Position numbers and translations under genes: made by a program. Below the pieces are notes generated by a model, which saw only the letters and a program-made list of their open reading frames with translations, was not told where the DNA came from and ran no database searches. A DNA stretch of 64,000 bases. Origin: an uncultured Planctomycetales bacterium (GTDB taxonomy: Bacteria; Omnitrophota; Gorgyraeia; Zapsychrales; JANLHA01). Location of the stretch: positions 91,631-155,630 of the forward strand of contig CAYYRJ010000001.1 in the NCBI GenBank assembly GCA_964474085.1. Reading direction: 5' to 3'. Of the stretch, positions 2,441 to 53,154 are shown one piece after another; within the stretch, counting starts at the first letter, position 1; the number at the start of each line of letters is the position of its first letter.

Positions 2441-2543
2441 TATTGCACTTTATCATGTATTCAGCAAGTATTTCCGGTTCTTCCTCAATAATAAATTTAA
2501 TGATTAAAAGATTTTAATTGCTGTTTTGAAGGAGGCTTACCCT

Positions 2544-5784: not shown

Positions 5785-5876
5785 CAAGTTTTTATCTATC
5801 GTTGTCATTCTGAGGCCAGAGGCCGAAGAATCTCAAGCATGGATTCTTCGCTGCGCTCAGGATGACAAAAACTTGC
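5785..5876. repeat. Long imperfect palindromic element (hairpin family H), copy 1
   Basis: caagttttt..gtcattctgaggccagaggccgaagaatc-loop-gattcttcgctgcgctcaggatgac..aaaaacttg. Related copies occur at 39600-39690 (inverted) and 37521-37580 (degenerate). All three lie just 3' of large genes. Confidence 0.6.
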
Positions 5877-6052
5877 ACATCGTCTTAAGTCATTTATTTG
5901 CAAAAGATTATAAGAAAATAGCCGTGCCTTTGGGTGCGGCTATTTTTTTTAAATCGTTGACTTTTAAGAGCTTTATATATATAGTATTGGCTTATTCTTA
6001 TTATAAAATTCGCTTAAAATCTATTTTTACCAATATACAGGAGGTTTTTTAA

Positions 6053-11332: not shown

Positions 11333-11558
11333 GCAGGTTAAATTCCAAGCGGGAAAGAAAAAATTTCTTTTCAGCGTTTGATCATCGTGCTATGATTCTT
11401 TCATTAAATCTTTCCTATTTTTGTCGTCGTGCAATTCTTCGTTTTCTGATCTGTTAAAAGTCCTTAGCCAGCAACATTTATTTGCTTTCCAAGGGCTTTT
11501 CTTTTATTGTTCTGAAATTTCCTAATATCATATCTTCCCCAAACAGGAGGGACACTTG

Positions 11559-15876: not shown

Positions 15877-18800
15877 ATGAAAAAAAACTTTTTTATGATG
15901 AATTATGCGTTTGCGCGTCGGGTAACGAGTTTTTTCATGCTCATTGTCTTTTCGCTGACCACGATTCTTTTGCCGGCTCAAGCCAGCGCCCAGAGCATTG
16001 GCATTCCCGGCGTTAATCTTCCGGCTGTCGGAACAATGCTTGGATTAAGCGAAAGTTTTCAACCGGCGATTATCCGTGGGATGACGGTGTATCCGGACAA
16101 TCCTTTGAAATTTGATTTTATTGTCAATACTGGCGACAAAAACCTTAAAGGCCAGGCGCTTGAAAAAGAGTCGCAGAAGCTGATCAAATATTTTTTGGCG
16201 TCGTTAACGACACCGGAGAATGAGTTTTGGGTCAATCTCTCGCCGTATGAAAGCGGACGGATTATTCCTGAAGCTTTGGGTACAACCGAAATGGGCCGGG
16301 ATATGTTGGCGCAGGATTATATTCTTAAGCAGTTGACTGCGTCTTTGTTGTATCCGGAAAAAGATTTAGGCAATAAATTCTGGCAACGAGTGCATGAAAA
16401 AGCCAAAAAGCTTTATGGGGTCAGCGAAGTTCCAGTGGACACTTTTAATAAAGTGTGGATTATGCCGGACAAAGCAGCGGTTTACGAAAACGATAATCGG
16501 GTTTTTGTCGTCGAGCGGCATTTGAAGGTGATGTTGGCGGAGGACTATGAGAAAAATTTAACTCCCCCCAGCCCCCTCTTTAAAAAAGCGGGGGAGAGCG
16601 GGAGCACTCAACTAACCCCCTCTTTAGATAAAGAGGGGGAAGGGGGAGTTCTGAAGAATAACATTCCCTCCCAAATCATGCGCGAACTGATCATCCCCGA
16701 GATCGAAAAGGAAGTCAACGAAGGGGAGAATTTTGCTGTTGTGCGACAGATTTATAATTCGATGATTTTAGCGACGTGGTACAAAAAACGTTTGAAAGAA
16801 AGTCTTTTGGGCCAAGTGTATGTTAACCAAAACAAAGTTAAGGGCATTGACTTAGCCGATAAAGCGACAAAACAAAAAATTTACGAACAGTATTTGGCCG
16901 CGTTTAAGAAGGGTGTTTACAACTATATTAAGGAAGATGTCGACGCTCTGACTAACGAACCGATTCCAACCAAGTATTTTTCGGGCGGGTTGACCGCAGG
17001 TGCTGTGACACAAGCGGCTTTGACTGAATATAATGGTGAACTTTCCCGCCAACCGAAAGTTGTCTCTGCCGCGGTCACACAGCCGCTGACAGACAAGGGA
17101 GAGGACGTCGTTGTTTCCTCGACGCTGGTAGAAAATGCCAATCAAGCCCAAGCCGCCGCTGCAACTCCAATCAAGTCCGTTTTGACAGACCTCAGAACAA
17201 ACGCTTCTTTCGCAATTCCGAAATCATCGTTTATGGATACTAAACTTTATCAACTCACCGGAGCAGCAAGTACGTGGTCTGTTTCCATGGGAGGGATAAT
17301 GGAGAGAATTCAAGGTTTTGGACTTGGCGCAGAGACGTGGGCGATAGAGGCTGCCGAGTTTGCAACATATCATCCGGGAACAGTTTTGCTAGGCGCTATC
17401 GCGTTTTATGCAGTTGCCTCTTTTGACCCGATTGGGTACTTTAGAAATAAAGTGGATTTTAACTTAAGGCAAGCGAATGCACTTAAGGATGATGATCAAA
17501 AACGTTATCTTTATTTAGATAGAATTGTTGCGCGGGGACAAGAAGTTGTTCCTGACTTATTGAATCAATTTCAACAGCCCGACGCTAGTCAGGCTAAGGT
17601 ACGTGATATTGCTTATGTATTGGGAAAACTTAAAGTTGCCCAAGCTGTTGAGCCGTTGATTTCTAAATTTAGTCAAAATATTGCAGTTGATGAAATTGTT
17701 GTAGCTTTAGGAGAAATCGGAGGACAGAAGGCTAGTGAACTGCTAGCACAACAGCTTTTAGAGAAAGGTTCACTTAGAAGCATCGCTGTTGCAGAAGGTT
17801 TAGTGAAATTGGGTGTTGATCGTGGCAAAGAATTTTTGTTTGAAATGTTAAAGAGTACGGATATTAAGCTGCGGACAGCGGCCAGAGTTTCTTTAAGTCG
17901 TTTGGAGATCAATGATGCGCCCGCGGTTATAATTTATGATGAGGTTTATCAAAGACTGCAAGCAGTAGTAAGTCCTGAAAATATCACTCTTCAATATAAT
18001 TTTGCTTCTGAATTTTCTGCGGCTTATGCGATTGCTTTGAGTGGAGGGGATTTTTACGTTACGTATGTTTCCGAGGCAACAGTTCTTCGTCCTGTTAAGG
18101 AAAATTCTTCCCTGAATGCTGATTATGAGAAAGTTATTGTGCCGGCAAAATTGGTAATTGTTAAAGAAGGTAATAAGTCTAGCCCTTCCTCCGCCTCGTC
18201 GGGGATTATGGAAAAGGCCAAGGCTCACGCTGTCATTTATTTCGGCCGTAAAGGTTTTAAAAAATCAATGCCTTATTTATTTAAGCTTTTAGGGCATAAA
18301 GATGAAAAGATTCGCTCAGAAGCTGAAGCAGTTTTAGTTAAGTTAGGGGCAACAAAAGAGCAAATGGTTGGTGCGTATATTATGGTTTTGAAAGGTTCTC
18401 CTAGGAACGGGGATCAGAAAAATGTTATTAAAAAATTGGGTGAAATTGGAGATAAAAAAACAATTGAGGTATTGTTGCCCTACTTAAAATTTAGTTGGTA
18501 CGAGTTTGAAGCCCAAACAGCTTTGGAAAAATTAGGCGTAACAAAAGAGCAAATAGTGGATTGGTATATTGTAGCTTTGAGTCAGGAACGAGATTATTAT
18601 AAGGATTATATTATTATAAGATTGGGTGAGCTTGGAGATCCGCGGGCAATTCCGGTATTATTGCCATATTTAGAAAGTAACGGTTTCACTGTAGCTAAAA
18701 TAGCTTTGACAAAGTTAGGCGTCACAAAAGAGCAAATGTCTGATGTTGTGAGTGAGCAGTTGGGAAGAGAATTTGTTGTTTATGATAAAAAACTCGATGA

Positions 18801-19602
18801 TAAGTATGTTTTAGATTTTAAAAGAAAACTTATTGGAAGATTAAATGAATTGGGGGATCCACGAGCAATTAAGCACTTATTGCCGTATTTAAATAGTAAC
18901 AATTACGCTGAAGCCCAAATAGCTTTGGAAAAATTAGGAGCAACAAAAGAGCAATTAACAGATGCGTATATTGTAGCGTTAGAAAACCCTTCTTTAGATA
19001 TTTCAATTGCTGCAGCAAATGCATTAGCTGACTTAGGGGATCAACGTTGCGTAGAGTTTTTGATTGAAACGTTGAAAAAAAGAAATGTGGTCAAGTCGTT
19101 AAATCGTCTGGGGATCCGTGACCCTAGGGTTGATCGTTTTAATGAGGTTGTTAGAAGAGTCCCTAGTAGTAATTTAATTGTTAAAGCGTATAACATTATT
19201 GAATCTGGTAATGATTTTATAGTTATTCATCACCCAGCTACGTATGAGATGTCAAATTATGACTGGTATGATCCGAACGGATTTAATTACGGACCTATTC
19301 CAATAGAGGTTTCTCCTTCTTCTGATTCACTTCAAATAATTCCAAAGGGTTCGCAGCCACCAGCAGCCTCGGCTGCTGTGACCACACCCGTTGGTGGTAT
19401 CGACTTTAATTCGGCGGCGCTTGATTTGCAGATTAAACGCGACAAAAAGGGCGTCCCGTTGCCTTTGCCCCAGCAGACGATACAAAACATGAAAATCGAC
19501 GGGTTTTATCCGGTCATTATCAATATCACGCCGGTCAATATTCCGATGCTTTTGGGACAAAAGACACAAAAAGAGCCGCAGCAGTTAAGTGCGTTAAGGT
19601 AA
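15877..19602 (+). CDS. Large secreted modular protein, paralog 3 of 4: N-terminus identical to paralog 2, different PBS-lyase HEAT-repeat core, conserved C-terminal tail
   Basis: RBS aggagg precedes ATG 15877. Identical to paralog 2 up to about aa 770, then at least five tandem repeats of about 46 aa (LGEIGDKKTIEVLLPYL..., LGELGDPRAIPVLLPYL..., LNELGDPRAIKHLLPYL..., LGxTKEQ). The C-terminal tail is GGIDFNSAALDLQIKRDKKGVPLPLPQQ...YPVIINITPV. Confidence 0.75.
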   Translation: MKKNFFMMNYAFARRVTSFFMLIVFSLTTILLPAQASAQSIGIPGVNLPAVGTMLGLSESFQPAIIRGMTVYPDNPLKFDFIVNTGDKNLKGQALEKESQKLIKYFLASLTTPENEFWVNLSPYESGRIIPEALGTTEMGRDMLAQDYILKQLTASLLYPEKDLGNKFWQRVHEKAKKLYGVSEVPVDTFNKVWIMPDKAAVYENDNRVFVVERHLKVMLAEDYEKNLTPPSPLFKKAGESGSTQLTPSLDKEGEGGVLKNNIPSQIMRELIIPEIEKEVNEGENFAVVRQIYNSMILATWYKKRLKESLLGQVYVNQNKVKGIDLADKATKQKIYEQYLAAFKKGVYNYIKEDVDALTNEPIPTKYFSGGLTAGAVTQAALTEYNGELSRQPKVVSAAVTQPLTDKGEDVVVSSTLVENANQAQAAAATPIKSVLTDLRTNASFAIPKSSFMDTKLYQLTGAASTWSVSMGGIMERIQGFGLGAETWAIEAAEFATYHPGTVLLGAIAFYAVASFDPIGYFRNKVDFNLRQANALKDDDQKRYLYLDRIVARGQEVVPDLLNQFQQPDASQAKVRDIAYVLGKLKVAQAVEPLISKFSQNIAVDEIVVALGEIGGQKASELLAQQLLEKGSLRSIAVAEGLVKLGVDRGKEFLFEMLKSTDIKLRTAARVSLSRLEINDAPAVIIYDEVYQRLQAVVSPENITLQYNFASEFSAAYAIALSGGDFYVTYVSEATVLRPVKENSSLNADYEKVIVPAKLVIVKEGNKSSPSSASSGIMEKAKAHAVIYFGRKGFKKSMPYLFKLLGHKDEKIRSEAEAVLVKLGATKEQMVGAYIMVLKGSPRNGDQKNVIKKLGEIGDKKTIEVLLPYLKFSWYEFEAQTALEKLGVTKEQIVDWYIVALSQERDYYKDYIIIRLGELGDPRAIPVLLPYLESNGFTVAKIALTKLGVTKEQMSDVVSEQLGREFVVYDKKLDDKYVLDFKRKLIGRLNELGDPRAIKHLLPYLNSNNYAEAQIALEKLGATKEQLTDAYIVALENPSLDISIAAANALADLGDQRCVEFLIETLKKRNVVKSLNRLGIRDPRVDRFNEVVRRVPSSNLIVKAYNIIESGNDFIVIHHPATYEMSNYDWYDPNGFNYGPIPIEVSPSSDSLQIIPKGSQPPAASAAVTTPVGGIDFNSAALDLQIKRDKKGVPLPLPQQTIQNMKIDGFYPVIINITPVNIPMLLGQKTQKEPQQLSALR
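15905..18207. repeat. Copy B of the 2.3-kb direct repeat
   Basis: See 11587-13889. Confidence 0.8.
16559..16654. repeat. In-frame palindromic element, copy 2
   Basis: Same sequence as 12241-12336. Lies inside the duplicated block. Confidence 0.6.
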
Positions 19603-19719: not shown

Positions 19720-22700
19720 ATGTCAATTTCTTCCAAACAGATAGCTCGTTTTTTGCGCAAGTCCTTATTTTGGCTTCTGATCGTTAGCTTTGCGCTAAAC
19801 ACCACCTTGCCGGCGTATGCCAAAGGGACGGAGGGTTTTTCTTTGCCTAGCGTCGGAGAGCAGGTTGCCTTAAGCTCTGCGTTTTCGCCAGTATTGCTAA
19901 AGGCGGTCAAAGTCAATCCGGATAATCCGTTTCAATTCGATTTTATCGTCGATGTCGGAAGCTCCAATTTGAAAGACGATGAATTAAAAGCGCAAGCGCA
20001 AAAACTGATCCGTTACTTTTTAGCGTCTTTGACAACGCCCGAAAATGATTTGTGGGTCAACCTTTCTCCGTATGAAAAAGAACGAATTATCCCAGAGTCT
20101 TTTGGTACAACTGAAATGGGTCGCGATCTTTTGGCAGAGGATTATTTGCTTAAGCAGATCACCGCGACTTTGCTTTCCCCGCAAGGGGAGCTGGGGAAAA
20201 AATATTGGGAAAAGGTTCATCGAGAAGAGACGTTAGACGTTAGACGCTTGACGCTGGCAAATAATTTAACCCCTAACCCCCAACCCCAAGCCACCAATAA
20301 TTTTAATAAAGTCTGGATCGTCCCGCAAAAGGCTGTTGTCTACGAGAATGGTACTACTGCTTACGTCGACGAAACGCATTTGAAAGTGATGATGGAAGAA
20401 GATTTAACTCCCCCCAGCCCCCTCTTTAAAAAAGCGGGGGAGAGCGGGAGCGTTCAATTAACCCCCTCTTTAGATAAAGAGGGGGAAGGGGGAGTTCTGA
20501 CAACCATCGTCCAGCGTCCATCGTCCATCGTCTCTGGTCAGCCTCGGCCGGATGGCCTCGGCATTCCCTCGGACGTTGCGTCCTCGGTCATACGTGAGTT
20601 CATCATCCCAGAGCTTGAGAAAGAAGTTAACGAAGGTAAAAATTTTGCGCCTTTGCGTCAGATTTACAATTCACTAATTCTTGCAAATTGGTATAAGAAG
20701 CGATTAAAAAACAGCATTCTTTCGCAGGTCTATGTTGATAAGAACAAGCTAGCCGGCATTGACTTAGATGACAAAGAACAAGCTCAGAAAATTTATGATC
20801 AGTATGTCGCAGCTTTTAAAAAAGGCGTTTATAACTATATCAAAGAAGACTATGACCCAGCGACGCAAGAAACCGTTCCGCGTAAATATTTTTCGGGCGG
20901 AATGGGTTTCGCCAGCTCGAGCGCGGCGACGCAATACCGTCAAGGTTTGCCTGAAAATGCTGGCGTTGCAAGCTCTGGATTGCGTAAAATTACGGTCGAT
21001 ACTCGACCATATGACACGAAAGAATTGGAAGACAAAGAAGTTCTTAAGCGGTTTGCAAAAATACAAGCTCAAAATAATGATAAAGCTAGACTTGCGCAGA
21101 GCAAGAATCGTGTTTACGAGGTGTTTAATTTGTCTGGGTTAAAACACATTGATTTTGCTTCTATGTATGAAGCATCTCAATCGGTTGCGCATACGCCAGC
21201 GTGGGGGGGTGTCGTTGCGATTCAGCCGTTATTGACCAAGTTTATCGACGATGTTTTTGAAAAAGCTTTGGATTTTGATGATCCGAAAGCAACTCAGATT
21301 GTATTTTTGCAGGCTGGGGCCCAACCGATTTATGAGACTGCGGTTTTAATGGCCAAAGTTACTGGAGTTTTTCCTGCCGAAAACCTTAAGAGCGTTTGGG
21401 CCACAATGGGAAATTATCGGCAAATGAAGGACGATAAAGAACAACGCTTACTATTTATTAAGTATTTGCATGATCAGGGAGTTTTGTCGCCGAAGACGAA
21501 ACATTTATTAATTGTTGATACCGACGCTGGAATTGTTGAAATCGGCACAGCAGCAATTTTTGCAAAAACACTTTTGGATAATGATGTTCTTCAAACGGCA
21601 AATCAGCGGTTTGGATTAAACATCAAGCTTTTTAATGAAGTTGGAGGTGAAAACACTTTAGATTTTTCTTATTTGTATAGCGCCTATGTTGCAAGTCCTG
21701 CAAAACGTGAAATTCATATTAAGGCTGAAAAAATATCTGGGCAAATAGACGCTAAATTACGCATTGAAGGATATAACGACAATACATCGGACATAGATCA
21801 AGCCATTCGCATTTCTAACCTATGGTATCCTGTTGACAGTTTTGTAAAAACGGCGAATATTTCTGATCGTTTTTCTTTAGATCAGGAAGGGCGATCCCAG
21901 GTGACTTTTCTGGCGCCCAATAAGCAACCTTATGATAATTTGAAGATATTAAATTTACTCCGTGCGGTTGAGGATATTGGTTTGTTAATAGGGACGCTTA
22001 ACGTTATGAGTGCCAAGGGTTTTGATGTGGCAGAGCAGGCGGACCAGTTGATTGAAAGGCTAGAGGACGTTTTTAAAACAAGCGGGGTCACGCAAGCGGA
22101 TATCGATGCTTCCAAACCGCAGCAAGGTTATCGGGCGTCTTCGTCGATCGCGTTTGGGACATCCGCAAAGATGCTTTTAAGTCCCCAAGATTTGGCCCGA
22201 TCAGAGGTTGTTAGCGTTCTACATACAATTGAGGATAGTGTAACAGGAAAACGTCGGATGACTTTAGAAATTAAGTCGCCCGATGGTAAAACTTTTATTT
22301 TAAAACTTTATAGTAAAAGCGAAGATTTCAATAATGAATCGTTGGGGTATGCTGTGGCCGAGAAACTTGGGATGCATGTGCCTAAGCATCAAGAGTTTGA
22401 AGAGTCGTCTGATTTTGATGGATTAGTCAAACAAGCCGTTAAAGTTGGGAATATTCTGCCGCAAATGGCTGAGCCTTACGGTTGGGCACGCTTGATTGAG
22501 CAGGTACAAGAATATAAAACGGATAAACCTTATAATGGATTAGAAGAATTGGTCGTTTTTACACATTTGATGCATTTTGAAGATTACGATAAATTAAAAC
22601 CGCAACAAATTTTTTCAAGGAATATATTTTTCACAAAAGACGGTAAGTATGTCGTTTATGATTATGAAACGGAGTGGGATGTAGATTTTTCAAATAATTA

Positions 22701-23169
22701 TTTTTCTAAGTATAAAGATGTAGCCTATAGAATTGATCAGGGCAGATTAGAAAATGTTATTAAAGTAGCCCGCAAATTAACGGCTGATGATTTTCGAGAT
22801 CTTCTGGTGACTGATCAAAGCCGTCAAAATTTTCAAAAACGGGTTGAGAGCTTCGAGGAGGATATGATTCGACAATTGGGATATTTCCGCGATGAACCTC
22901 AGGCCGTTCGACTCTTGGAGATCGTCAAAAACATGCCGTCATCTTCGGATGTCGGCGGGATTGATTTGACGGCTGGCAAAACGCCGTTGGATATCCGCGC
23001 CCAAAGCGAGCCGGTCGAGTTTAATTTTGACCCTCAACAGCTGCAAAATTTGCAATTCGACGGCTTGGTACCGGTGATTATTAACATTGCCCCGGTTATT
23101 AATCTTCCGCAATTTTTAACCGAAAAACCTGTCTTTCAATCCGCCGGGCAGTTAAGCAGATCCAATTGA
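19720..23169 (+). CDS. Large secreted modular protein, paralog 4 of 4: conserved N-domain, distinct globular core (possibly kinase-like), conserved C-terminal tail
   Basis: Signal peptide MSISSKQIARFLRKSLFWLLIVSFALNTTLPAYAKG. N-domain motifs NPFQFDFIV, WVNLSPYE, IIPESFGTTEMGRDLL, FNKVWIVP, NEGKNFAPLRQIY and YFSGG. The C-terminus is GGIDLTAGKTPLDIRAQSEPVEFNFDPQQLQNLQFDGLVPVIINIAPV. About 50% identical to paralogs 2 and 3 in the N-domain. Confidence 0.75.
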   Translation: MSISSKQIARFLRKSLFWLLIVSFALNTTLPAYAKGTEGFSLPSVGEQVALSSAFSPVLLKAVKVNPDNPFQFDFIVDVGSSNLKDDELKAQAQKLIRYFLASLTTPENDLWVNLSPYEKERIIPESFGTTEMGRDLLAEDYLLKQITATLLSPQGELGKKYWEKVHREETLDVRRLTLANNLTPNPQPQATNNFNKVWIVPQKAVVYENGTTAYVDETHLKVMMEEDLTPPSPLFKKAGESGSVQLTPSLDKEGEGGVLTTIVQRPSSIVSGQPRPDGLGIPSDVASSVIREFIIPELEKEVNEGKNFAPLRQIYNSLILANWYKKRLKNSILSQVYVDKNKLAGIDLDDKEQAQKIYDQYVAAFKKGVYNYIKEDYDPATQETVPRKYFSGGMGFASSSAATQYRQGLPENAGVASSGLRKITVDTRPYDTKELEDKEVLKRFAKIQAQNNDKARLAQSKNRVYEVFNLSGLKHIDFASMYEASQSVAHTPAWGGVVAIQPLLTKFIDDVFEKALDFDDPKATQIVFLQAGAQPIYETAVLMAKVTGVFPAENLKSVWATMGNYRQMKDDKEQRLLFIKYLHDQGVLSPKTKHLLIVDTDAGIVEIGTAAIFAKTLLDNDVLQTANQRFGLNIKLFNEVGGENTLDFSYLYSAYVASPAKREIHIKAEKISGQIDAKLRIEGYNDNTSDIDQAIRISNLWYPVDSFVKTANISDRFSLDQEGRSQVTFLAPNKQPYDNLKILNLLRAVEDIGLLIGTLNVMSAKGFDVAEQADQLIERLEDVFKTSGVTQADIDASKPQQGYRASSSIAFGTSAKMLLSPQDLARSEVVSVLHTIEDSVTGKRRMTLEIKSPDGKTFILKLYSKSEDFNNESLGYAVAEKLGMHVPKHQEFEESSDFDGLVKQAVKVGNILPQMAEPYGWARLIEQVQEYKTDKPYNGLEELVVFTHLMHFEDYDKLKPQQIFSRNIFFTKDGKYVVYDYETEWDVDFSNNYFSKYKDVAYRIDQGRLENVIKVARKLTADDFRDLLVTDQSRQNFQKRVESFEEDMIRQLGYFRDEPQAVRLLEIVKNMPSSSDVGGIDLTAGKTPLDIRAQSEPVEFNFDPQQLQNLQFDGLVPVIINIAPVINLPQFLTEKPVFQSAGQLSRSN
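20404..20499. repeat. In-frame palindromic element, copy 3 (about 97% identical to copy 1 within otherwise diverged flanks)
   Basis: ctccccccagccccctctttaaaaaagcgggggagagcgggagcgttcaattaaccccctctttagataaagagggggaagggggag. The flanking nucleotides are not conserved with paralog 2. Confidence 0.6.
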
Positions 23170-35535: not shown

Positions 35536-37512
35536 TTATTTGTTGAGGAGAGCTGCTTTTAAACTCTGCACATCATTTTCGAGAGTGGTTAAAATTTTGT
35601 CTTGCTCGGCAATTGTTTTCTTTTGGTCTTTAAGGACGGCCGTCAAGACGGCGGTTACCGGCATAGCGTTTAGGCCTTTGCGCCCTTGTTCGGCGAGAAG
35701 ATCGGGAACATCTTCGGCAATAAACCCGACGTGATGTTCGGCTTTGTCAGCTTTATAATTGTATGTCACAGGATTTAGCTTTTGAAAAGTTTCAAGCGCT
35801 TTTTGTGTCTCAAGCGGTAAAATATTGTCTTTGAATTTTTGGCTTGACGTGTTGGTCCAAACTCCGCCGACGGTCAAATAAGCGCCGTTACCATTGGTTA
35901 CTCCGGTTCCGATTTGTAATGGGTAGCCTGGATTATATTTGGCTATGCCGACATAGCCGTTATTTTTGACAATAAAAATATTGCCGGCAGTTGCAGCATT
36001 TGTTGATGTTAGCGCCAAAAAGTCACTGGGATTTGCTGCGGGTAAGGTAATGCTCAAAATAGCGCTGGGATTTGTTTCACCGATACTAAGTCGTGGATTA
36101 ACAGGACTTCCTCCGCTTGTTCCGGGAGCCAAGATAAAAGCATCAGCGGCAGTTATATTAACTGTGGTATCTGAATAGCCCCAAACAAAAGTTCGGTCGG
36201 CCGCAGTAGAAAGATTCATATAACGTCCGCCCACCCAAGAATAATCACCAGCGACCGTGTTATGGTCACCTCCCGCGATCACCGAATAATGTCCCGATGC
36301 GGTATTATTTGATCCGGCTGCGATTATTGAGGATGTTCCGCTAGCGGTATTGCTTAATCCTCCTAGGACAGTTGCATAAGTTCCCGAGGCTGTGTTTGAT
36401 TTTCCTCCGGAAACGACGGCCCAATCACTTGAAACTGTATTAGAATCTCCCCCGCCGATAACCGAATAAGAACCGCTTGCATTATTTGTATTTCCGCCAC
36501 CGACATAACTATAGGGTCCATTTGCGATGTTAGATTTTCCGCCGCCTATGGCAGCATAATTACCATTGATCCCATTTTGAACGCCTCCGCCGATAAACGT
36601 GTAATTTTTTCCTGTGACATTATTACCTGATCCACCGGAAATCGTTGAATAAGTGCTGTTGACGGCGATCACATTAAATGTTCCGCCACCGATTGTTTCG
36701 CCAATGCCCGAGGAAACATTATTTGCTCCGCCGCCAATCGTATTATAGTCTCCGGTGGCTCCATTTGAAGCCCCAGAAACGGCCGAATATTGGCTTGATA
36801 TTGTGTTTGATTCTCCACCTGTGATCGTTGAATAAGCTCCAGTGACGCTGTTGTTTTTTCCACCCGCGACAGTGCAATAATCGGCGCTGGCTATATTAAA
36901 GATTCCGCTAACGGTTGAGGCGCTGCCTGTTACCGTCGGCCTATCGCCAAATCCGACGGAATAATTTCCAAGATTGATGTCATCTGTAACATTGCTTCGA
37001 TCCCAAACTGCCCGAAAAACCGCTTTGCGTGGGTACCAGATAAAACGGGCAATGGGCGGGGTTACTCCGTTGCTAGGGTAAGATGTTACGGTTCCGCTAT
37101 TGAAGGTTCCCATCGCTAAAATTCCGCCGTCATTGTCCAGCGTTAATTTAAAATTAGGGACAGATGTCCCGATCCCTGCAAAAATAAGCGGCTTGCTGTC
37201 CGTATCCTTTGGATAAACATAATTTCCTAAGGTCGTCCATACATTGCTTAAAGGTCCCCACGTACCGACGCCGAGAACATCGTGGCAATAAAAGATTTTT
37301 CCGCTGGACTGTTCGACGCTCAGTGTTCCTATTGTACAGGTGGCGGGAAGACTTGTTTGCGGGATTAGAGTCATCCGGTCAAAAGCGCCTTGCGGTGCGG
37401 GATAGTACGTTGTCAATTGAATATTTCCGGCTTTGCTGATCGTCGGGCAAGCTAAGAATGCGAGCGTAAACCAAACTATCAGCATTAATTTGTTTAATAT
37501 TGAAAAATACAT
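35536..37512 (-). CDS. Secreted tail-fibre-like protein A: G/S/N-rich repeat core plus C-terminal phage-type intramolecular chaperone (peptidase S74) domain
   Basis: Start set at MYFSILNKLMLIVWFTLAFLACPTISKA (signal peptide), because the track's N-terminal extension translates the hairpin repeat. N-terminal YYPAPQGAFDRMTLIPQ module. About 20 SGGxSNTxSGxYSxIxGG repeats. The C-terminus SSQKFKDNILPLETQKALETFQKLNPVTYNYK...HVGFIAEDVPDLLA...TAVLTAVLKDQ matches the endosialidase/tail-spike chaperone fold. Confidence 0.75.
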   Translation of the reverse strand: MYFSILNKLMLIVWFTLAFLACPTISKAGNIQLTTYYPAPQGAFDRMTLIPQTSLPATCTIGTLSVEQSSGKIFYCHDVLGVGTWGPLSNVWTTLGNYVYPKDTDSKPLIFAGIGTSVPNFKLTLDNDGGILAMGTFNSGTVTSYPSNGVTPPIARFIWYPRKAVFRAVWDRSNVTDDINLGNYSVGFGDRPTVTGSASTVSGIFNIASADYCTVAGGKNNSVTGAYSTITGGESNTISSQYSAVSGASNGATGDYNTIGGGANNVSSGIGETIGGGTFNVIAVNSTYSTISGGSGNNVTGKNYTFIGGGVQNGINGNYAAIGGGKSNIANGPYSYVGGGNTNNASGSYSVIGGGDSNTVSSDWAVVSGGKSNTASGTYATVLGGLSNTASGTSSIIAAGSNNTASGHYSVIAGGDHNTVAGDYSWVGGRYMNLSTAADRTFVWGYSDTTVNITAADAFILAPGTSGGSPVNPRLSIGETNPSAILSITLPAANPSDFLALTSTNAATAGNIFIVKNNGYVGIAKYNPGYPLQIGTGVTNGNGAYLTVGGVWTNTSSQKFKDNILPLETQKALETFQKLNPVTYNYKADKAEHHVGFIAEDVPDLLAEQGRKGLNAMPVTAVLTAVLKDQKKTIAEQDKILTTLENDVQSLKAALLNK

Positions 37513-37520
37513 GTTCTCTG

Positions 37521-37580
37521 GCATTCTGAAGCCAACAGCCGAAGAATCTAAATCATGATCCTTCGCTTCGCTTACGATGA
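37521..37580. repeat. Hairpin family H, degenerate copy in the spacer between tail-fibre-like genes A and B
   Basis: cattctgaagccaacagccgaagaatct-aaatcat-gatccttcgcttcgcttacgatgac. Confidence 0.5.
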
Positions 37581-37613
37581 CAGAAATTAGTATATTGTGT
37601 TTATTTTTCATCA

Positions 37614-39716
37614 TTAAGGACCCAGCATTTTTTTAAGTGTTTTAATTTCGTTTTTGATTCTTTCAATTTTTTCTTTTTGTATTTTGATCGTTTGTTCCTG
37701 ATCCTGTGATACCTTGGTCAAGACGGCAATAATGTCCATTGAGCTTAATGCTTGGCGGCCGTTTAAGGCCACAATTTCGGGAACGTCCTCGGCGATAAAA
37801 CCGGCTGTCGTCTGCCGGCTGGCTTTATAGTTAAACGTCATGGGATTGAGTTTTTCCAAGGTGTCTTCTGCCGTTTGAGAAGCAAGAGGAGTAATATTTT
37901 CTTTGGATTTTCGTGAGGAGCCATTGGTCCAAACGCCGCCAGCGCTTAGAAATGCATTGTTAGCATTTCCAAATTGCATGGCATATGTTCCATCCGTTGG
38001 GGTCGCTTTATTTACGCCAAGATACCCATTATTTTTTACGATAAAAACATCGCCGGAAGCGGTTCTTTTGATATTGATATAATCGTCAGCGGTTGCGTTA
38101 GCATTGATTTCCATGACACCGGAAGGGGATGTGTCCCTAATCCCAACTTTGGGGTTCCAGGGTTGGCCGCTAATTGTTCCGGGGGCGATGATAAAAGCAT
38201 CCGCTGTTGTGACAGAAACAGGAGTATCCGAATAGCCCCAGACAAAAGTCCTGTCGGCCACGGGGTTTAGGAATAACCGCAGTAACTGCATATTTTTTCC
38301 GCCGGCCCAGGAATAGTCACCAGCCGCAGTATTATCTGTGCCGCCCATAACCGTTGAGGAAACGCCGTTGGCGAAGTTTCGTTCTCCGCCGCCGCTGATC
38401 GAATAAGCACCGTTGGCGCTATTTTGTAATCCGCCGCCGATTGCAATGTAATGTCCTGTAAGGTTACTATTATTTTTTCCTCCTGAGATAGTTGAGTAAT
38501 CTCCGAGAGGAATATTACTTTGGCCGCCGGAAACGCGGGAATAATTACCTATTAATGGTGTAAAAACTCCAGGGGCAGGTTGTGCGCTTATCATGCTGCT
38601 GCTTCCTCCACCAATGCTTGCATATTGACCTGTGACAATATTGTTTTCTCCTCCTGAAACAACGGCATAGTCATCGCGCGCTTGATTATTTTTTCCGCCG
38701 CCGATGACAGCATAGCCGCTTGTCCCTCCCCCAACAAGGGGATTGATAGTATTATGTTCTCCGCCGTTGATATTTGAGTAGGGAGTTGAAACTGTATTTG
38801 ATACTCCGCCGCCAACGGTTGCGTAAATGACGCTTGTGGTATTGCTTTGTCCTCCGATGATAGTGGCGTAATCGGCATTTGCGATATTTGCTTGTCCGCC
38901 GGTGATTGTTGCATATTGGCCGCTTGCGGTATTGTTTGTCCCTCCAGTTATTGCAGAGTAATCACCGCTGGCCGTATTTGTTTGTCCTCCGATGACATTA
39001 GAATATTGACCGCTGGCCGTATTTGTGTCTCCGCCGCCGACGACTGAATAAGCGCCGCTGGCTGTTGAATCTTTTCCAAGCGCTGCAGAATAATTTCCGA
39101 TATTCGTATCATCCCATTGGACGCCGCTGACATAACCGGCACGAAAAGCCGCTTTGCGTGGATACCAGATCAAACGGCTGCCTGCGCTAATTCCATCCGG
39201 CAAGACAACGCCGCTGCCAAAAGTTCCCATGGCAATGATTCCGGCATCATTGGCAAGACTTAATTTGAATTCGGGTGTTTTAGTCCCGATGCCGACTTTG
39301 AGCGTTGTGTCCGTTACATAAATGTCGTCGTTGTTTTGGTCCCAGGCATCGCTGACAGATCCCCATTGGCCTGTTCCGCTATTATCGTGGCAATATAGAA
39401 GTAGATTACTTGAGTTGACATAAAGGGTTCCGATCGTGCAGGGATCTGTTAAGTCAACACTTCTGGGCAAAAGGCGCATTTGATCGTATTCACCGGACAA
39501 CGACGGATAATAGAGCGTCATCGTCATCTCCGAGGCTTGCAGACTTGTAGGCAGAATCAATAAAAACCCAAAGATGATTTTGAGAATTAATGCGATGTTC
39601 AAGTTTTTGTCATCCTGAGCGTAGCGAAGGATCTCCATTCCAGATTCTTCGGCCTTTGGCCTCAGAATGACGAGTATAGATAAAAACTTGCATATGACGT
39701 TATCTGGTTTTTTCAT
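37614..39716 (-). CDS. Secreted tail-fibre-like protein B (same architecture as A)
   Basis: Coordinates follow the ORF track. The first 36 or so codons (VILRPKAEESGMEILRYAQDDK) translate hairpin copy 39600-39690. The true start is probably near 39600-39640, just before the signal peptide LNIALILKIIFGFLLILPTSLQAS. Has the LYYPSLSGEYDQMRLLPR module, G/S/N repeats, and the S74-like tail SSRKSKENITPLASQTAEDTLEKLNPMTFNYK...AGFIAEDVPEIVA. Confidence 0.7.
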   Translation of the reverse strand: MKKPDNVICKFLSILVILRPKAEESGMEILRYAQDDKNLNIALILKIIFGFLLILPTSLQASEMTMTLYYPSLSGEYDQMRLLPRSVDLTDPCTIGTLYVNSSNLLLYCHDNSGTGQWGSVSDAWDQNNDDIYVTDTTLKVGIGTKTPEFKLSLANDAGIIAMGTFGSGVVLPDGISAGSRLIWYPRKAAFRAGYVSGVQWDDTNIGNYSAALGKDSTASGAYSVVGGGDTNTASGQYSNVIGGQTNTASGDYSAITGGTNNTASGQYATITGGQANIANADYATIIGGQSNTTSVIYATVGGGVSNTVSTPYSNINGGEHNTINPLVGGGTSGYAVIGGGKNNQARDDYAVVSGGENNIVTGQYASIGGGSSSMISAQPAPGVFTPLIGNYSRVSGGQSNIPLGDYSTISGGKNNSNLTGHYIAIGGGLQNSANGAYSISGGGERNFANGVSSTVMGGTDNTAAGDYSWAGGKNMQLLRLFLNPVADRTFVWGYSDTPVSVTTADAFIIAPGTISGQPWNPKVGIRDTSPSGVMEINANATADDYINIKRTASGDVFIVKNNGYLGVNKATPTDGTYAMQFGNANNAFLSAGGVWTNGSSRKSKENITPLASQTAEDTLEKLNPMTFNYKASRQTTAGFIAEDVPEIVALNGRQALSSMDIIAVLTKVSQDQEQTIKIQKEKIERIKNEIKTLKKMLGP
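39600..39690. repeat. Hairpin family H, copy 3 (inverted relative to 5785-5876), in the spacer between tail-fibre-like genes B and C
   Basis: caagttttt gtcatcctgagcgtagcgaaggatc-tccattcca-gattcttcggcctttggcctcagaatgac...aaaaacttg. Confidence 0.6.
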
Positions 39717-41665
39717 AAATTTTTTGAACGCACGTTAGACGGATTTTTAATTTGTGCTTTGTTTTTTAATTCTTCAAACTCTTTTAATAATTTATCTGTT
39801 TCATTTTTTTGTTGTTTGAGAATATCCTGTTGATGTGCGACGACTTTTGTCAGCAGCGCGGTAATGTCCATGGGTGATAAGCCGTCACGATTTTTGGTTG
39901 CAACAATATCCGGCACGTCCTCGGCAATAAAGCCAAGGTAGCGATGATCGGGTTCGTTTTTATAATTGTATTCAACGGGTTTAAGCCTTAAAAAAGCATA
40001 GAGCGCATCCGAAGAAGAAAGAGAGTTAATATTTTCTTTATATTCGCGGCTTGAGGCATTGACAAAGTTGCCGGCAGCTGAAACATAGGCGCCGTTGCCA
40101 AATTCCAATGGGTTTGTCGGAGCGCTTTGATTGACACCCACGAAACCATTATTTTTGATTTTTAATATGTTGCCGACAACTGCGGCGGATGTGCTGGTTA
40201 AATTTAGATAATCATCGGTGGAGCCATTCGTGTTGATTTCCAATAAGGCCGCAGGCGTAATGTCGCGGATACCCATCGAGCCCGAGTAAATGATCATTGC
40301 ATCTGAGGCAGCTATTGCCCCAATTGCGCCGGCAGAATAACCCCAAACAAAGGAATGGGCGCCCGAAACATTCATGTTTCTTCCGGCGGCGAGTGAGTAA
40401 CTTCCGTCGGCGGTATTACTTTGTCCTCCGGGCACAATGGCGTGATCGCCGCTGGCGGTATTTGAGTTTCCGCCAATAACTGTTGAAAAGTCGCCGCTGG
40501 CCGTATTTGAGAAGCCGCCGCTGTTTGTACAGTAGCCGTTTTGGCAGTTGGCTGTATTATTTTTCCCGCCGGATATTGTGGTATATTGACTCTCTGCGGT
40601 ATTGGTATCGCCGCCGGAAACCGTTGAGTAAGCTCCCGAAACCGTATTGGAATTTCCGCCGCTTATGACAGAATAAATATTGTAACCGGCATTGCTATAT
40701 CCGCCGGCAATTGTGCTGAAATCACAGGCTGCATCTATTATGTTGCCTTGTCCCCCAGAAATTGTGCTGTAATTTGCAAAAATATTATTTCCTTTTCCCC
40801 CAGAAATGGCTGAACCAGCTGAATTAATGTTGTTGAAAGTTCCGCCGGAAATCGTAGCATACTGACCGTTTGCCACATTGCTTTCCCCTCCGCCGATCAT
40901 GGAGATTCTTTCGTTGCTGGTATTATTTTTTCCAGAAGCTCGAGATCTAAAATTGGCGTTGTTGCCTGATCCGCCTAAGATTTGTGCTCCCCCGATTGCA
41001 ATATTGTTTTTTCCTCCAGCGATTGTCGCAGAGGTCCAATAAACCGTGGGAGCGAATTCGGAGTCTTTAGTTAAATTATTTTCACCTCCCCAAACGCTTG
41101 TCCCTTCGCCTTGAGCCGTGTTTCCAGAACCCATCGCCATCGAACTTGTGCCGATATTCGCATCGTCCCATTGATCGCCGTCAATATATCCGGCACGAAA
41201 AGCACCTTTAAGCGGATACCATATCAGCCGCGTTCCTGGGCCTGAAACGGGCAAAGCTGATGAAGTTGAGGCCAAGCCGTCGCTTAAAATTCCGCCATCG
41301 TTTTCTAATGTTAGTTTAAAGATTGGTGCCGTGGTTCCAATACCGATTTTTTTGTTCTCGGGAGTTGTTGTATCGGTCAAATAAAGATCGTTTCCGCTTA
41401 AAGTCCACGGTCCGGCAATGGGCGCAAACGCTGGCAGCCCAACGGTCGGGCCGCAAAAATAGGGAAGACTGTTGTCGTCAGAATTGGCATAGATCGTTCC
41501 TAAAAAACAATTGCTTGTGGCAAGTGCTGATTGGGGGGTTAAATGGATGCTTTCGTAACTTCCTGCGGGAGCCGGGTAGTAGGATGTGAAATTAAAGTTT
41601 TCTGCCAGAGTGCTTGTGGTAAGCACGAAGAAGAAAGTCAGGGATAAGAAGAGCGTTTTTTTCAT
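39713..41665 (-). CDS. Secreted tail-fibre-like protein C (same architecture as A and B)
   Basis: Signal peptide MKKTLFLSLTFFFVLTTSTLA. FTSYYPAPAGSYESIHLTPQ module, SGGxxNTASGxxS repeats, and the C-terminus SSREYKENINSLSSSDALYAFLRLKPVEYNYKNEPDHRYLGFIAEDVPDIVATKNRDGLSPMDITALLTKVV, a near-consensus S74 intramolecular chaperone. Confidence 0.75.
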   Translation of the reverse strand: MKKTLFLSLTFFFVLTTSTLAENFNFTSYYPAPAGSYESIHLTPQSALATSNCFLGTIYANSDDNSLPYFCGPTVGLPAFAPIAGPWTLSGNDLYLTDTTTPENKKIGIGTTAPIFKLTLENDGGILSDGLASTSSALPVSGPGTRLIWYPLKGAFRAGYIDGDQWDDANIGTSSMAMGSGNTAQGEGTSVWGGENNLTKDSEFAPTVYWTSATIAGGKNNIAIGGAQILGGSGNNANFRSRASGKNNTSNERISMIGGGESNVANGQYATISGGTFNNINSAGSAISGGKGNNIFANYSTISGGQGNIIDAACDFSTIAGGYSNAGYNIYSVISGGNSNTVSGAYSTVSGGDTNTAESQYTTISGGKNNTANCQNGYCTNSGGFSNTASGDFSTVIGGNSNTASGDHAIVPGGQSNTADGSYSLAAGRNMNVSGAHSFVWGYSAGAIGAIAASDAMIIYSGSMGIRDITPAALLEINTNGSTDDYLNLTSTSAAVVGNILKIKNNGFVGVNQSAPTNPLEFGNGAYVSAAGNFVNASSREYKENINSLSSSDALYAFLRLKPVEYNYKNEPDHRYLGFIAEDVPDIVATKNRDGLSPMDITALLTKVVAHQQDILKQQKNETDKLLKEFEELKNKAQIKNPSNVRSKNL

Positions 41666-41810
41666 GATCTACCTTTTTAGTGAAGCGTTGCAAAAGGTAA
41701 CAGAGCCAACAACGGGTTACATAAAATATATGTGATAATTCCATATTAAACAAGTCAGAAGGCTAAAAATTTAAAAAGCGCTTTCTTTGGAGGAAATATT
41801 AAAAATACGA

Positions 41811-41839
41811 TTGACAAACGTAAAGGGCTTAATTAAAGT
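41811..41839 (+). promoter_or_regulatory. Candidate promoter for the ACP-like gene
   Basis: TTGACA at 41811-41816, 17 nt, then TAAAGT. Confidence 0.3.
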
Positions 41840-41881
41840 ACATTTGTATTTATCGTTCTTATCCTAAAAATTGCGAGAGAG

Positions 41882-42157
41882 GTGAATATGGCAGATTCCG
41901 GCAAAGGTATCAACGTCGAAAAAGATATGCGTTCCCTTGTGGCTGAAATTCTTGAAACCGAACCCGATCAATTGGATCTTTCCGCAAAGTTTGTCAAAGA
42001 TTTAGGCATGGACTCGATGATGGCTTTAGAGATTCTCGCCGGCATCGAGAAAAAATACCGCATCGTGATCCCCGAGGAGATGCTTTCAAAATTTACCGAT
42101 CTTGCGGCTACCGTAGAAATTGTTACGGCAATCCTTGTTAAAAATAAAAAACTTTAG
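41882..42157 (+). CDS. Acyl carrier protein-like (phosphopantetheine-binding) protein
   Basis: 91 aa. DLGMDSMMALEILAGIE carries the conserved Ser within a DSL-like motif. No fab genes are adjacent. Confidence 0.6.
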   Translation: MNMADSGKGINVEKDMRSLVAEILETEPDQLDLSAKFVKDLGMDSMMALEILAGIEKKYRIVIPEEMLSKFTDLAATVEIVTAILVKNKKL

Positions 42158-50890: not shown

Positions 50891-50964
<74 letters not shown>

Positions 50965-51058: not shown

Positions 51059-51132
51059 GGACTCATAGCTCAGCTGGTTAGAGCGCTGCCCTCACATGGC
51101 AGAGGTCGGAGGTTCGAGCCCCCCTGAGTCCA
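51059..51132 (+). tRNA. tRNA-Val (CAC)
   Basis: ggactcatagctcagctggttagagcgctgccctCACatggcagaggtcggaggttcgagcccccctgagtcca. The cloverleaf folds, with one A:C mismatch in the T stem. Confidence 0.7.
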
Positions 51133-52301: not shown

Positions 52302-52780
52302 TGGCAATGACTGAAAAAAGTTTTGAGATTTTTACCGATGGTGGGGCAAGCGGAAATCCGGGGCCAGCCGGCATCGGGGTTGTTATTAAAGAGGACGGAC
52401 AGACGATTTTTGAAATTTCCAAAAGCATTGGAGAGGCGACAAATAATGTGGCTGAATACAGGGCCGTCATCGCCGCACTAGAAGAAGCAATTGCCCGCAG
52501 TGCTCAAAAAGTTTTTTTAAATACGGACAGCGAACTGGTCTATTTTCAACTGATAGGCAGTTACAAAGTCAAAAATGAAAATTTGCTTTTGCTCGTCGAA
52601 AAGGTGAGAGAATTGTCACGCAAGATCAAGTCTGTCGAAATCAAGGCGATTCCCCGAGAACAGAATGTGGACGCTGACCGTTTAGCAAAACAAGCGATAT
52701 TAAAAAATAGATTTCATCAGGCCAAGGTGGTTGCCTCGAAGTCCATCTTCGGGGAGGAAAGTCCGAGCTCCAAAGGGTAA
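52301..52780 (+). CDS. rnhA: Ribonuclease HI
   Basis: FTDGGASGNPGPAGIGVV...EATNNVAEYRAVIAALE...TDSELV...REQNVDADRLA is the RNase H catalytic DEDD core. The last 65 or so nt overlap the start of rnpB. Confidence 0.8.
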   Translation: MAMTEKSFEIFTDGGASGNPGPAGIGVVIKEDGQTIFEISKSIGEATNNVAEYRAVIAALEEAIARSAQKVFLNTDSELVYFQLIGSYKVKNENLLLLVEKVRELSRKIKSVEIKAIPREQNVDADRLAKQAILKNRFHQAKVVASKSIFGEESPSSKG

Positions 52781-53089
52781 TGCATTCAGGTAACGCTGAA
52801 CCCTCGTTAAGGAAACTGACGTGAGGAGGATTAGAGCTACAGAGACGAGCGTACTGCTTATGGCGAGTGTCATCATCGTCAGGCGATACGAGTGAAACGA
52901 GCAATCTCTGCAGGGAGAAAGGCCAAATAGGAAGCGACTGTCCGTCAAGGACGACGAAGTGACCCGCTTTGTTAAAAGCTTCGGGTAGGCTGCAAGAGTT
53001 AGAGGGGCGACCTTCTAAGTCAGTTGAATAACCATCATTCCCGCCCTTAATATTATCGGGAAAACATAACTCGGCTTACTGGCCTGATG
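52715..53089 (+). ncRNA. rnpB: RNase P RNA (bacterial type A-like)
   Basis: P1 pairing catcaggcca/tggcctgatg joins the two ends. The universally conserved ggaggaaagtccgagctcc (P4 5' strand) and a 3' acataactcggcttac (P4 3' strand) are present. About 375 nt. Confidence 0.75.
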
Positions 53090-53154
53090 AATTTTTTGGG
53101 AGTATTTCTAAAGCAGAACTCATAAACTAATGTAACAGCACTTAGGAGGTTTCA

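Follow-up and report, generated by a model that had tools for sequence, protein, structure and literature searches.

An ordered trio of Peptidase_S74 proteins, probable trimeric surface fibres, encoded in an Omnitrophota chromosome

The locus raises the question of what three tandem genes for exported proteins with phage-like C-terminal domains are doing among the housekeeping genes of a bacterial chromosome. They lie in a 64-kb stretch of Omnitrophota DNA (the window). The Omnitrophota are uncultured and ultra-small, parasitism or predation on other microbes is suspected, and the discussion of their attachment has so far centred on giant ORFs (PMC10066038). It is proposed here that the products of the three genes (A, B and C) are Sec-exported proteins that most likely form trimeric surface fibres of the Omnitrophota cell. 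The new point of the analysis is that the trio is ancient and fixed in its order, and that it is inherited and, where duplicated, duplicated as a unit.

Gene organization and N-terminal regions

The three paralogues are on the minus strand, where the original prediction had placed them: gene A at 39713-41665 (ORF of 650 aa), gene B at 37614-39716 (longest ORF of 700 aa, from an ancestral ATG overlapping the stop of A) and gene C at 35536-37614 (longest ORF of 692 aa, from its ancestral ATG). Alternative starts are a TTG at 39602 for B, downstream of an inserted element, giving 662 aa, and an ATG at 37512 for C, giving 658 aa. The genes are co-oriented and probably co-transcribed, presumably from a promoter in the divergent intergenic region (41666-41881, without assigned strand) that separates gene A from the ACP-like and SMC genes. 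A scan for promoters and terminators gave counts no higher than chance, and no site above chance in 41666-41881.

Each protein starts with a Sec-type signal peptide and a conserved N-terminal domain, continues with about 19 beta-roll repeats and ends in Peptidase_S74. In A, these parts are the signal peptide (residues 1-21), the cap/base domain (22-148), the beta-roll (149-438), the stem/tip (439-537) and S74 (538-650); B and C have the same architecture. The AF2 monomer model of A had a pLDDT of 80 overall and over 90 in the beta-roll, with residues 18-39 and 106-129 below 50.

Signal peptides were judged by inspection of the aligned N-termini of 12 triad proteins. All 12 display Sec features, with a K/R-rich n-region, a hydrophobic core of 12-20 residues and A or G at -1; in A the cut falls between MKKTLFLSLTFFFVLTTSTLA and ENF. 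A lipoprotein reading of C, through a Cys in its signal peptide, was ruled out, as this Cys is not kept in the C orthologues. As had been predicted for A, B and C, the YYPAPxGxY cap comes directly after the signal-peptide-like N-terminus, and the same holds for each orthologue. The cap/base domain of A (41222-41602, minus strand), defined by alignments and profile search, contains the xNFxFTSYYPAPxGxY motif, a beta-rich region with two Cys and the first VGIGTxxPxFKL loop motif. Both Cys (Cys53 and Cys71 of A) are kept in all 12 aligned proteins. An exhaustive search of representatives with the N-cap profile yielded 1104 clusters, with the domain nearly always at residues ~22-100; the alignment profile run against a word index of 5.8 billion proteins gave 0 matches. 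Among the fetched loci the domain is restricted to Omnitrophota.

Beta-roll shaft and S74 domain

The shaft occupies 40349-41221 in A, 38244-39167 in B and 36187-37038 in C, all on the minus strand. In A it makes about 19 turns of a repeat unit of 15 aa (45 nt), GGxxNxAxGxYSTIxGG. The expectation of a repetitive core of the YadA-head type was thus confirmed: the repeat is real, and the match to the UspA1 head (3pr7, E = 3.5e-17) marks it as a YadA/UspA1-type beta-roll. The best structural matches of the shaft are adhesin heads and, since these are obligately trimeric, they support a trimeric fibre; the trimeric state of A, B and C is suggested by sequence homology to such modules. The Pfam model LbR_Ice_bind is also matched by A, but to read the proteins from that name as ice-binding or antifreeze proteins is hardly credible at all, and this reading was ruled out because adhesin heads score far higher.

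The predicted C-terminal S74 chaperone is genuine in all three proteins. Pfam Peptidase_S74 (PF13884, cut-off of 22 bits) is matched above its gathering score by A (40.5 bits, E = 3e-10), B (33.1 bits, E = 7e-8) and C (46.6 bits, E = 4e-12), and the Ser/Lys dyad is intact. The dyad is formed in A by Ser538 (40052-40054) and Lys543 (40037-40039), invariant columns that span 40037-40054, in B by Ser562 (37917-37919) and Lys567, and in C by Ser556 (35845-35847) and Lys561, always on the minus strand. In the motif SS[RQ]xxK, S538, S539 and K543 (A numbering) are invariant in the 12 triad proteins; in a wider alignment of 68 proteins the Lys is invariant and both Ser are present in at least 90%. 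The second motif residue is Ser instead of the usual Asp. The Pfam match begins at Ser538, and autocleavage is predicted from the sequence between Ala537 and Ser538 of A and at the equivalent sites of B and C.

Chromosomal setting and relation to phages

RidA, RecO and YbeY lie on one side of the trio and the ACP-like gene and SMC on the other, so the housekeeping neighbours named in the original prediction were found, with YbeY in addition. Each of the window ORFs scanned with Pfam or NCBIfam was either housekeeping or without match, and none was a phage gene (capsid, terminase, sheath, baseplate, integrase or lysis). For the relatives, with contigs of up to 505-633 kb, the inspection covered 20-22 kb at each locus; on the 505-kb and 633-kb contigs there were no phage neighbours within flanks of about 10 kb.

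Tail fibres of a degraded prophage, of a tailocin or of an extracellular contractile injection system (CIS) would account for weak PHROG tail-fibre matches (E = 1e-5 to 1e-8), and S74 and beta-roll modules are known in viral proteins. Such an origin of the genes is nevertheless very improbable. Phage and CIS fibres are assembled in the cytoplasm, whereas A, B and C have Sec signal peptides. No phage structural, integrase or lysis genes were found among the scanned ORFs of the 64 kb or in the fetched flanks of relatives, and the GC content is like that of the surroundings. The place beside ACP/SMC, kept in L001, L003, L006, L007, L008, L011 and L013, is stable across genomes with SMC 67-94% identical. 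As to the proteins themselves, phage databases have at most 17% of the query in common, in the S74 part, and about 15% of the protein matches phage sequences. Viral contigs gave 77 matches, of which 75 are confined to S74 and stem, while the other two also cover the beta-roll, as far as residue ~150-180; the N-cap domain was present in 0 of the 77 viral loci with S74 relatives. A prophage was therefore rejected, given that no phage genes were found among the scanned ORFs or in the fetched flanks and that the likeness to phages is limited mainly to S74. The preference of the original prediction for a cellular fibre over a prophage remnant is borne out by the housekeeping setting, here and in relatives, and by the Sec signal peptides. 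Its further idea of phage-derived parts is plausible as one possible direction of transfer; what phages have in common with the trio is S74 and, rarely, the beta-roll, never the N-terminal domain.

Comparison with known systems

The closest known class is that of the MAT (mosaic adhesive trimeric) fibres of Bdellovibrio, a family described in 2024 by Caulton et al. (PMC10769870), and within it the S74 subgroup, e.g., Bd3182, the N-domains being compared by description only. MAT genes are chromosomal and non-phage, as here, and the layout is alike: behind a signal peptide come a conserved N-terminal domain rich in beta structure (~125-130 aa), a long fibre and S74 with Ser...Lys. The stem profile matches 8ojn, a construct of the Bd3182 tip, with the alignment ending at the cleavage Ser (a weak match, E = 0.012), and both have the capping-loop motif V-G-x-G/N-x-x-x-P-x-x-x-L, found at A107, A464 and A509 and at equivalent positions in B and C. 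Just as MATs are divided into S74 and NS74 subgroups, N-cap proteins occur both with and without S74 (28/70 sampled). There are also differences: MATs have ~1000 aa against ~650 aa here, their shaft is mainly an intertwined beta-helix instead of a YadA/UspA1-type beta-roll, and their motif is SDxxxK instead of SSxxxK. The MAT paper itself lists a 713-aa S74-like protein from Omnitrophica as a MAT, demonstrates autocleavage in Bdellovibrio and localizes sampled MATs to the predator surface, the invasion vesicle or the bdelloplast (PMC10769870).

With the chaperones of phage tailspikes and tail fibres (K1F endosialidase, T5 L-shaped tail fibre pb1) the trio has in common S74, the Ser/Lys dyad and the C-terminal helix, but the phage proteins have neither signal peptide nor N-cap and are sited among structural genes. 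The shaft is of the same type as the heads of trimeric autotransporters (UspA1, BpaC, YadA, CbpF), and YadA-like head repeats, as in type Vc adhesins, are present. However, the trio lacks their coiled-coil stalk and neck, and its C-terminus consists of S74 plus a helix: a Pfam scan at E <= 0.1, which returned only S74 and LbR_Ice_bind, gave no YadA-type beta-barrel membrane anchor there. Assignment to type Vc was ruled out for lack of this anchor and, with S74 in its place, the export route must differ from that of autotransporters. Among solved structures the best match of the C-terminal domain is the ICA domain of MYRF (7dc3), a self-cleaving trimerising chaperone, matched weakly by sequence profile (E = 0.0036) and also by fold; MYRF itself acts as a membrane-bound transcription factor of eukaryotes, in a biological context unrelated to the trio.

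Conservation of the trio

The orthologues fall into three clades that coincide with gene position, and the order A-B-C, or ABCABC, is kept in eight independent loci (L001/L010, L003, L006, L008, L011, L012, L013 and L017), covering seven other Omnitrophota genomes. In L003 the arrangement is ABCABC, a duplication en bloc. The synteny in relatives thus holds for the trio itself, while the flanking genes sometimes differ, and the order persists even where they do (e.g., L012). Ancient clades and a kept order mean a fixed set rather than a recent diversifying expansion. A triplication with divergent cores for variable specificity, which had been predicted, does not agree with these data, as the paralogues are ~40% identical in every domain, core included. 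Bdellovibrio, in contrast, has 21 scattered and variable MAT genes.

The fibres evolve faster than SMC, with identities of 76-80% against 94% in L006 and of 50-61% against 83% in L001, and the beta-roll is their fastest-evolving part. As judged from these comparisons, this fits an exposed binding surface.

The matching of clade and position suggests another possibility, an obligate heterotrimer in which a single fibre contains A, B and C in the ratio 1:1:1, with the S74 domains picking one of each. Besides the exact agreement of three ancient clades with gene position, the maintenance of the order in eight independent loci even with other flanks, and the en bloc duplication, this would be in line with the start-on-stop overlaps seen in relatives, which suggest equimolar coupled translation, and with shafts of nearly equal length (283-318 aa). 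Tandem trios also occur in Omnitrophota with other architectures, N-cap without S74 in L026 and S74 without N-cap in L082, whereas the S74 genes in ~60 loci of other phyla are almost all single. Yet in the core of the coiled coil A, B and C carry identical or comparably hydrophobic residues, with no chain-selection code visible in the alignment, and just seven positions are constant within clades yet different between them. The lengths of the repeat regions are unmatched within trios (e.g., 290, 307 and 283 aa for A, B and C of the window), the stem of A lacks an insertion of 10-13 residues present in B and C, and in L016 the tandem genes number at least four. To our knowledge, all S74 fibres and autotransporter heads of solved structure are homotrimers. 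So are the MAT fibres (PMC10769870). On balance the heterotrimer is doubtful, and it seems rather unlikely that chains are selected through S74 and that the three trio architectures (N-cap with S74, N-cap only, S74 only) reflect a lineage-wide switch from homotrimeric to heterotrimeric fibres. If true, heterotrimer formation would represent a novel way of assembling fibres with S74 chaperones.

Proposed assembly and function

Considering the homologies together, we infer a sequence of events for the trimeric fibres in which each chain would be exported by Sec and lose its signal peptide. Trimerisation by the C-terminal S74 domains would then nucleate the folding of the stem, perhaps as an intertwined beta-helix with VGxxxxxPxxxL capping loops like that of Bd3182, and from this nucleation three left-handed beta-rolls of YadA/UspA1-head type could fold alongside one another. 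The Ser/Lys dyad would cut Ala537/Ser538 (in A), freeing a chaperone fragment of ~100-113 aa and exposing the mature C-terminal tip. The N-terminal domain may keep the fibre on the cell, while beta-roll and tip would be the ligand-binding parts, with the ligand probably carried by a host or prey cell.

A structural coat, made of S-layer-like or sheath-like fibrils, or a role in cell-cell cohesion would dispense with host- or prey-specific adhesion. This is improbable: in structure the closest matches are to adhesin heads, the beta-roll changes more quickly than the other parts, as expected of a ligand-binding or antigenic surface, and no lattice-forming domain was recognised. As putative adhesive surface fibres, the trio offers compact, conserved and readily annotated candidates for the attachment apparatus of Omnitrophota, and it would widen the MAT-fibre concept beyond Bdellovibrio to a further phylum, in which an autotransporter-head beta-roll serves as shaft. 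Being strictly conserved, the three-gene set could also serve as a lineage marker.

Gene junctions and hairpin elements

Near their 5′ ends, B and C each carry an inserted copy of a MITE-like element. One (39585-39690, minus strand, ~105 nt) lies shortly downstream of the ancestral ATG of B, the other (37502-37605, plus strand, in opposite orientation) shortly downstream of that of C. The terminal inverted repeats of the element (CAAGTTTTT...AAAAACTTG) enclose a 65-nt hairpin at its centre; z-scores range from -2.5 to -5.5. The hairpins that had been placed in both intergenic spacers are therefore real, but by the longest ORFs neither junction has a spacer. In the closest relative A and B overlap by ATGA, and B and C overlap by one base, as TAATG in the window and as CAATGA in L006. 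In the window the reading frame stays open through the element. The insertions could impair translation or export of B and C in this genome.

Fibre proteins A, B and C and their domains

The three minus-strand paralogues A, B and C are cellular fibre proteins ending in S74 (Pfam Peptidase_S74, a self-cleaving chaperone), a reading in which the original prediction was right. They are encoded by gene A (39713-41665; an ORF of 650 aa), gene B (37614-39716; 700 aa as the longest ORF) and gene C (35536-37614; 692 aa as the longest ORF), with the same GC content as their surroundings (0.455-0.46). Pfam placed S74 near the C-terminus of each protein, exceeding the curated cut-off, and the beta-roll model LbR_Ice_bind in mid-protein; the matches to PHROG tail-fibre families were weak. 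The fibre repeat has a period of 45 nt, i.e., 15 residues. In an alignment of 12 proteins from such gene trios, the Ser-Ser pair and the Lys of the catalytic motif SS[RQ]xxK were invariant (S538/K543 in A); the motif has the Ser...Lys spacing of S74, but Ser where Asp is usual. In the same alignment, the N-termini display a positively charged n-region, then a hydrophobic core with A or G at position -1 and, within 5-8 residues of this signal-peptide-like N-terminus, the conserved motif xNhxhTxYYPAPxGxY, shortly followed by two conserved cysteines. Thus, the initial description made from the sequence only was accurate, as the ORFs, S74, the 15-residue repeat and the N-terminal motifs are all present.

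The AlphaFold2 model of A had a mean pLDDT of 80, with values >90 across the beta-roll and <50 at residues 18-39 and 106-129. By sequence, the shaft of beta-roll repeats resembles the UspA1 head (3pr7, E = 3.5e-17), and Foldseek concurs. An autotransporter identity was rejected because the Pfam scan of A, B and C found no YadA-type membrane anchor.

Concerning the C-terminal part, a profile of the last 220 residues matched the self-cleaving ICA domain of MYRF, a eukaryotic trimerizing domain (7dc3, E = 0.0036), and the tip of mature Bd3182, a Bdellovibrio fibre (8ojn, E = 0.012), the latter alignment stopping at the serine where Bd3182 self-cleaves. A loop motif that occurs twice in the Bd3182 fragment (RVGVGTTAPTSAL and FFGINTAAPAYNI) recurs at A107, A464 and A509, and also in B and C.

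The conserved domain behind the signal peptide (N-cap; residues 22-148 in A) was searched as a profile of 78 positions against 1.84 billion representatives. At E <= 0.001, the search yielded 1104 clusters at 50% identity, the match lying nearly always around residues 22-100, directly behind the signal peptide. Among 70 full-length members sampled, S74 was present in 28 and YadA_head in 14, while most of the remaining ones had no Pfam match. The N-terminal domain of A, B and C looks phylum-specific: among the loci fetched from species-representative genomes, the N-cap occurred only in Omnitrophota, where all 19 of the N-cap-bearing ORFs among 99 ORFs with S74 were found. A separate observation concerns protein P0123 (1614 aa, RMH16936.1), from a MAG labelled 'Gammaproteobacteria bacterium', in which a segment of the N-cap profile that includes the cysteines (positions 24-62) recurs as 19 partial internal repeats; this is a different use of the Cys motif.

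Relationship to MAT fibres and to viral proteins

A, B and C belong to an already recognised kind of protein, described in 2024, whose nearest known counterparts are the 'mosaic adhesive trimeric' (MAT) fibres, of which Bdellovibrio has 21 (Caulton et al. 2024; PMC10769870). In MAT fibres, a signal peptide precedes an invariant, beta-rich N-terminal domain (~130 aa) with a proposed role in binding an element of the cell surface; a long trimeric fibre and a tip that varies between members complete the layout. S74 forms the end of 13 of the 21, Bd3182 was shown to cleave itself, and several MATs are found at the predator surface or in the invasion vesicle (PMC10769870). Supplementary Table S3 of that paper lists as a MAT the Omnitrophica protein A0A2H0LB00 (713 aa, 'S74-like') (PMC10769870). 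Unlike the Bdellovibrio MATs, A, B and C have an autotransporter-head shaft, a seemingly phylum-specific N-terminal domain and a fixed trio organization. The literature search found no paper joining Omnitrophota with 'tail fiber', and giant ORFs are the only adhesin candidates discussed in the main Omnitrophota study (PMC10066038). What is new, and testable, is the conserved three-gene organization of the fibre set.

In 50,697 phage genomes, the matches were confined to approximately residues 512-621 or to a short repeat stretch, covering at most 17% of the protein. In IMG/VR, relatives of S74 were found in 77 loci, two of which also matched the beta-roll; in these 77 loci there was no match to residues 1-150 and none to the N-cap local HMM. 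Predicted viral structures pair YadA-like rolls with S74. So, it can be said that the roll and S74 are modules common to fibre proteins and viruses.

Conservation and age of the gene trio

The closest homologues of A, B and C are in Omnitrophota metagenome-assembled genomes, with several on one contig, and when named they are called 'tail fiber domain-containing protein'. The neighbour-joining tree of 85 full-length proteins contained three clades in exact match to gene position. The genes run A-then-B-then-C on one strand in the fetched loci L001/L010, L006, L008, L011, L012 and L013, while L003 (3701-16011) is ABCABC and L017 (2-8069) is ...BC ABC, a tandem duplication of the whole unit. In the tree, the A copies of L003 are placed in separate subclades, each beside a partner from another genome, which makes this duplication an old one. 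In most trio loci, ACP and SMC genes lie divergent and upstream of A (SMC 67-94% identical to that of the window), and the downstream side varies: FabV and a nucleotidyltransferase in L001 and L003 versus RidA and RecO in the window. The L012 trio is surrounded by TPR, MFS, PurN and FtsH genes. Since the clades correspond to gene position and the order is kept despite differing flanks, the trio is old, maintains its order and moves as a unit, with two adjacent ABC sets in L003. The window paralogues are ~36-51% identical to one another in every domain, which, together with the old age of the trio, contradicts the earlier proposal of a recent diversifying triplication with specially divergent cores. 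The beta-roll is the region of greatest difference between orthologues.

In L008, the B orthologue (2910-5061) is divided into ORFs of 376 and 418 aa that overlap; a frameshift, a pseudogene or an assembly error might account for this. The MAGs of L006, L008, L011, L017 and L026, titled 'uncultured Planctomycetales bacterium', have the trio in common with Omnitrophota MAGs, and the first three also agree in SMC/ACP synteny, their SMC reaching up to 94-97% identity with the window copy; these five are probably mislabelled.

Considering cluster size, S74 genes were almost always single in ~60 loci of other phyla. The complete Omnitrophota clusters have three genes in the window, L006 (its closest relative), L010, L012, L026 and L082, three with one gene split in L008, and six in L003; L016, with at least four tandem genes, breaks the pattern. 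L026 and L082 are from more distant Omnitrophota: in L026 (3034-7362), three N-cap proteins stand in tandem and lack S74, and L082 (7499-11354) has three tandem signal-peptide S74 proteins of ~425 aa without the cap, with 47-52% mutual identity and overlapping start/stop codons. The occurrence of gene clusters of three in a protein class that forms trimers invites the idea that A, B and C are the chains of one heterotrimer. Indirect tests by shaft lengths, by clade-specific positions and by the coiled-coil core as read from the 12-protein alignment neither supported nor contradicted it. The solved relatives are all homotrimers, and an A:B:C heterotrimer seems unlikely.

Concerning the mechanism, we propose that the chains of A, B and C would be exported by Sec, and that the S74 domains would then trimerize, either in the periplasm or at the surface. 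The stem and the three beta-rolls would fold next, and autocleavage is predicted ahead of Ser538 (A), Ser562 (B) and Ser556 (C), which would make Ala537 the new C-terminus in A. The N-terminal domain would anchor the fibre for display at the surface, and the roll and the tip would bind a ligand in a putative adhesive role. The fibre would be roughly 15-20 nm long, counting 19 beta-roll turns of about 0.48 nm, a stem of about 6 nm and the N-domain. The domain content, catalytic residues, gene context and orthology were observed directly; the case for trimers, cleavage, surface display and adhesion is drawn from homologous systems.

MITE-like elements at the starts of B and C

The apparent spacers between the fibre genes are copies of a ~105-nt MITE-like element that has the terminal inverted repeats CAAGTTTTT...AAAAACTTG and forms a stable 65-nt hairpin at its centre (dG -25 to -35 kcal/mol). 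One copy lies just after the ancestral ATG of B (39585-39690, minus strand), another just after that of C (37502-37605, plus strand), and a third at ~5785-5890 (plus strand). In L006, A and B overlap by ATGA, and B and C by one base. The window keeps the ATG codons of B and C found in L006, with the element directly downstream and the frames open through it. Therefore, B and C may be extended at the N-terminus by 34-38 residues, or their translation may begin at internal codons, the candidates being TTG at 39602 for B (at the 3' end of the element, inside the terminal repeat AAAAACTTG) and ATG at 37512 for C. The in-frame copies translate to 'ILRYAQDDK'-type peptides, and the insertions resemble the in-frame palindromic elements of Rickettsia.

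Genomic setting

The trio is flanked on one side by PhoH, an HD-domain membrane protein, YbeY, RecO and RidA, and on the other by an ACP-like protein, SMC, a CvpA-like protein, DnaG and RpoD. The remaining genes of the window include IMPDH, GuaA, DnaE, HisS, an Asp/Lys-type tRNA synthetase, RuvA, ScpB, aromatic amino-acid enzymes and LepA. Among the genes of the 64 kb, none of phage, tailocin or injection-system type was found. The ACP-like gene (PP-binding; 41882-42157), directly upstream of smc and divergent from A, is kept in at least seven related loci; its score of 46 bits is below the NCBIfam ACP cut-off of 70.

The strand bias is extreme: in window 1-64000, all gene-like ORFs of >=120 aa are on the plus strand, except A, B and C. 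The GC skew stays positive along the window; 36-42 kb is the only interval in which it falls to about zero. Two large ORFs, of 1073 aa (2526-5747) and 1149 aa (19720-23169), matched no Pfam family at E <= 1e-5 and adjoin two HEAT-repeat giants, of 1409 aa (11556-15785) and 1241 aa (15877-19602). The class A RNase P RNA (52714-53094, 157 bits), tRNA-Met(CAT) (50891-50964) and tRNA-Val(CAC) (51059-51132) are ordinary.
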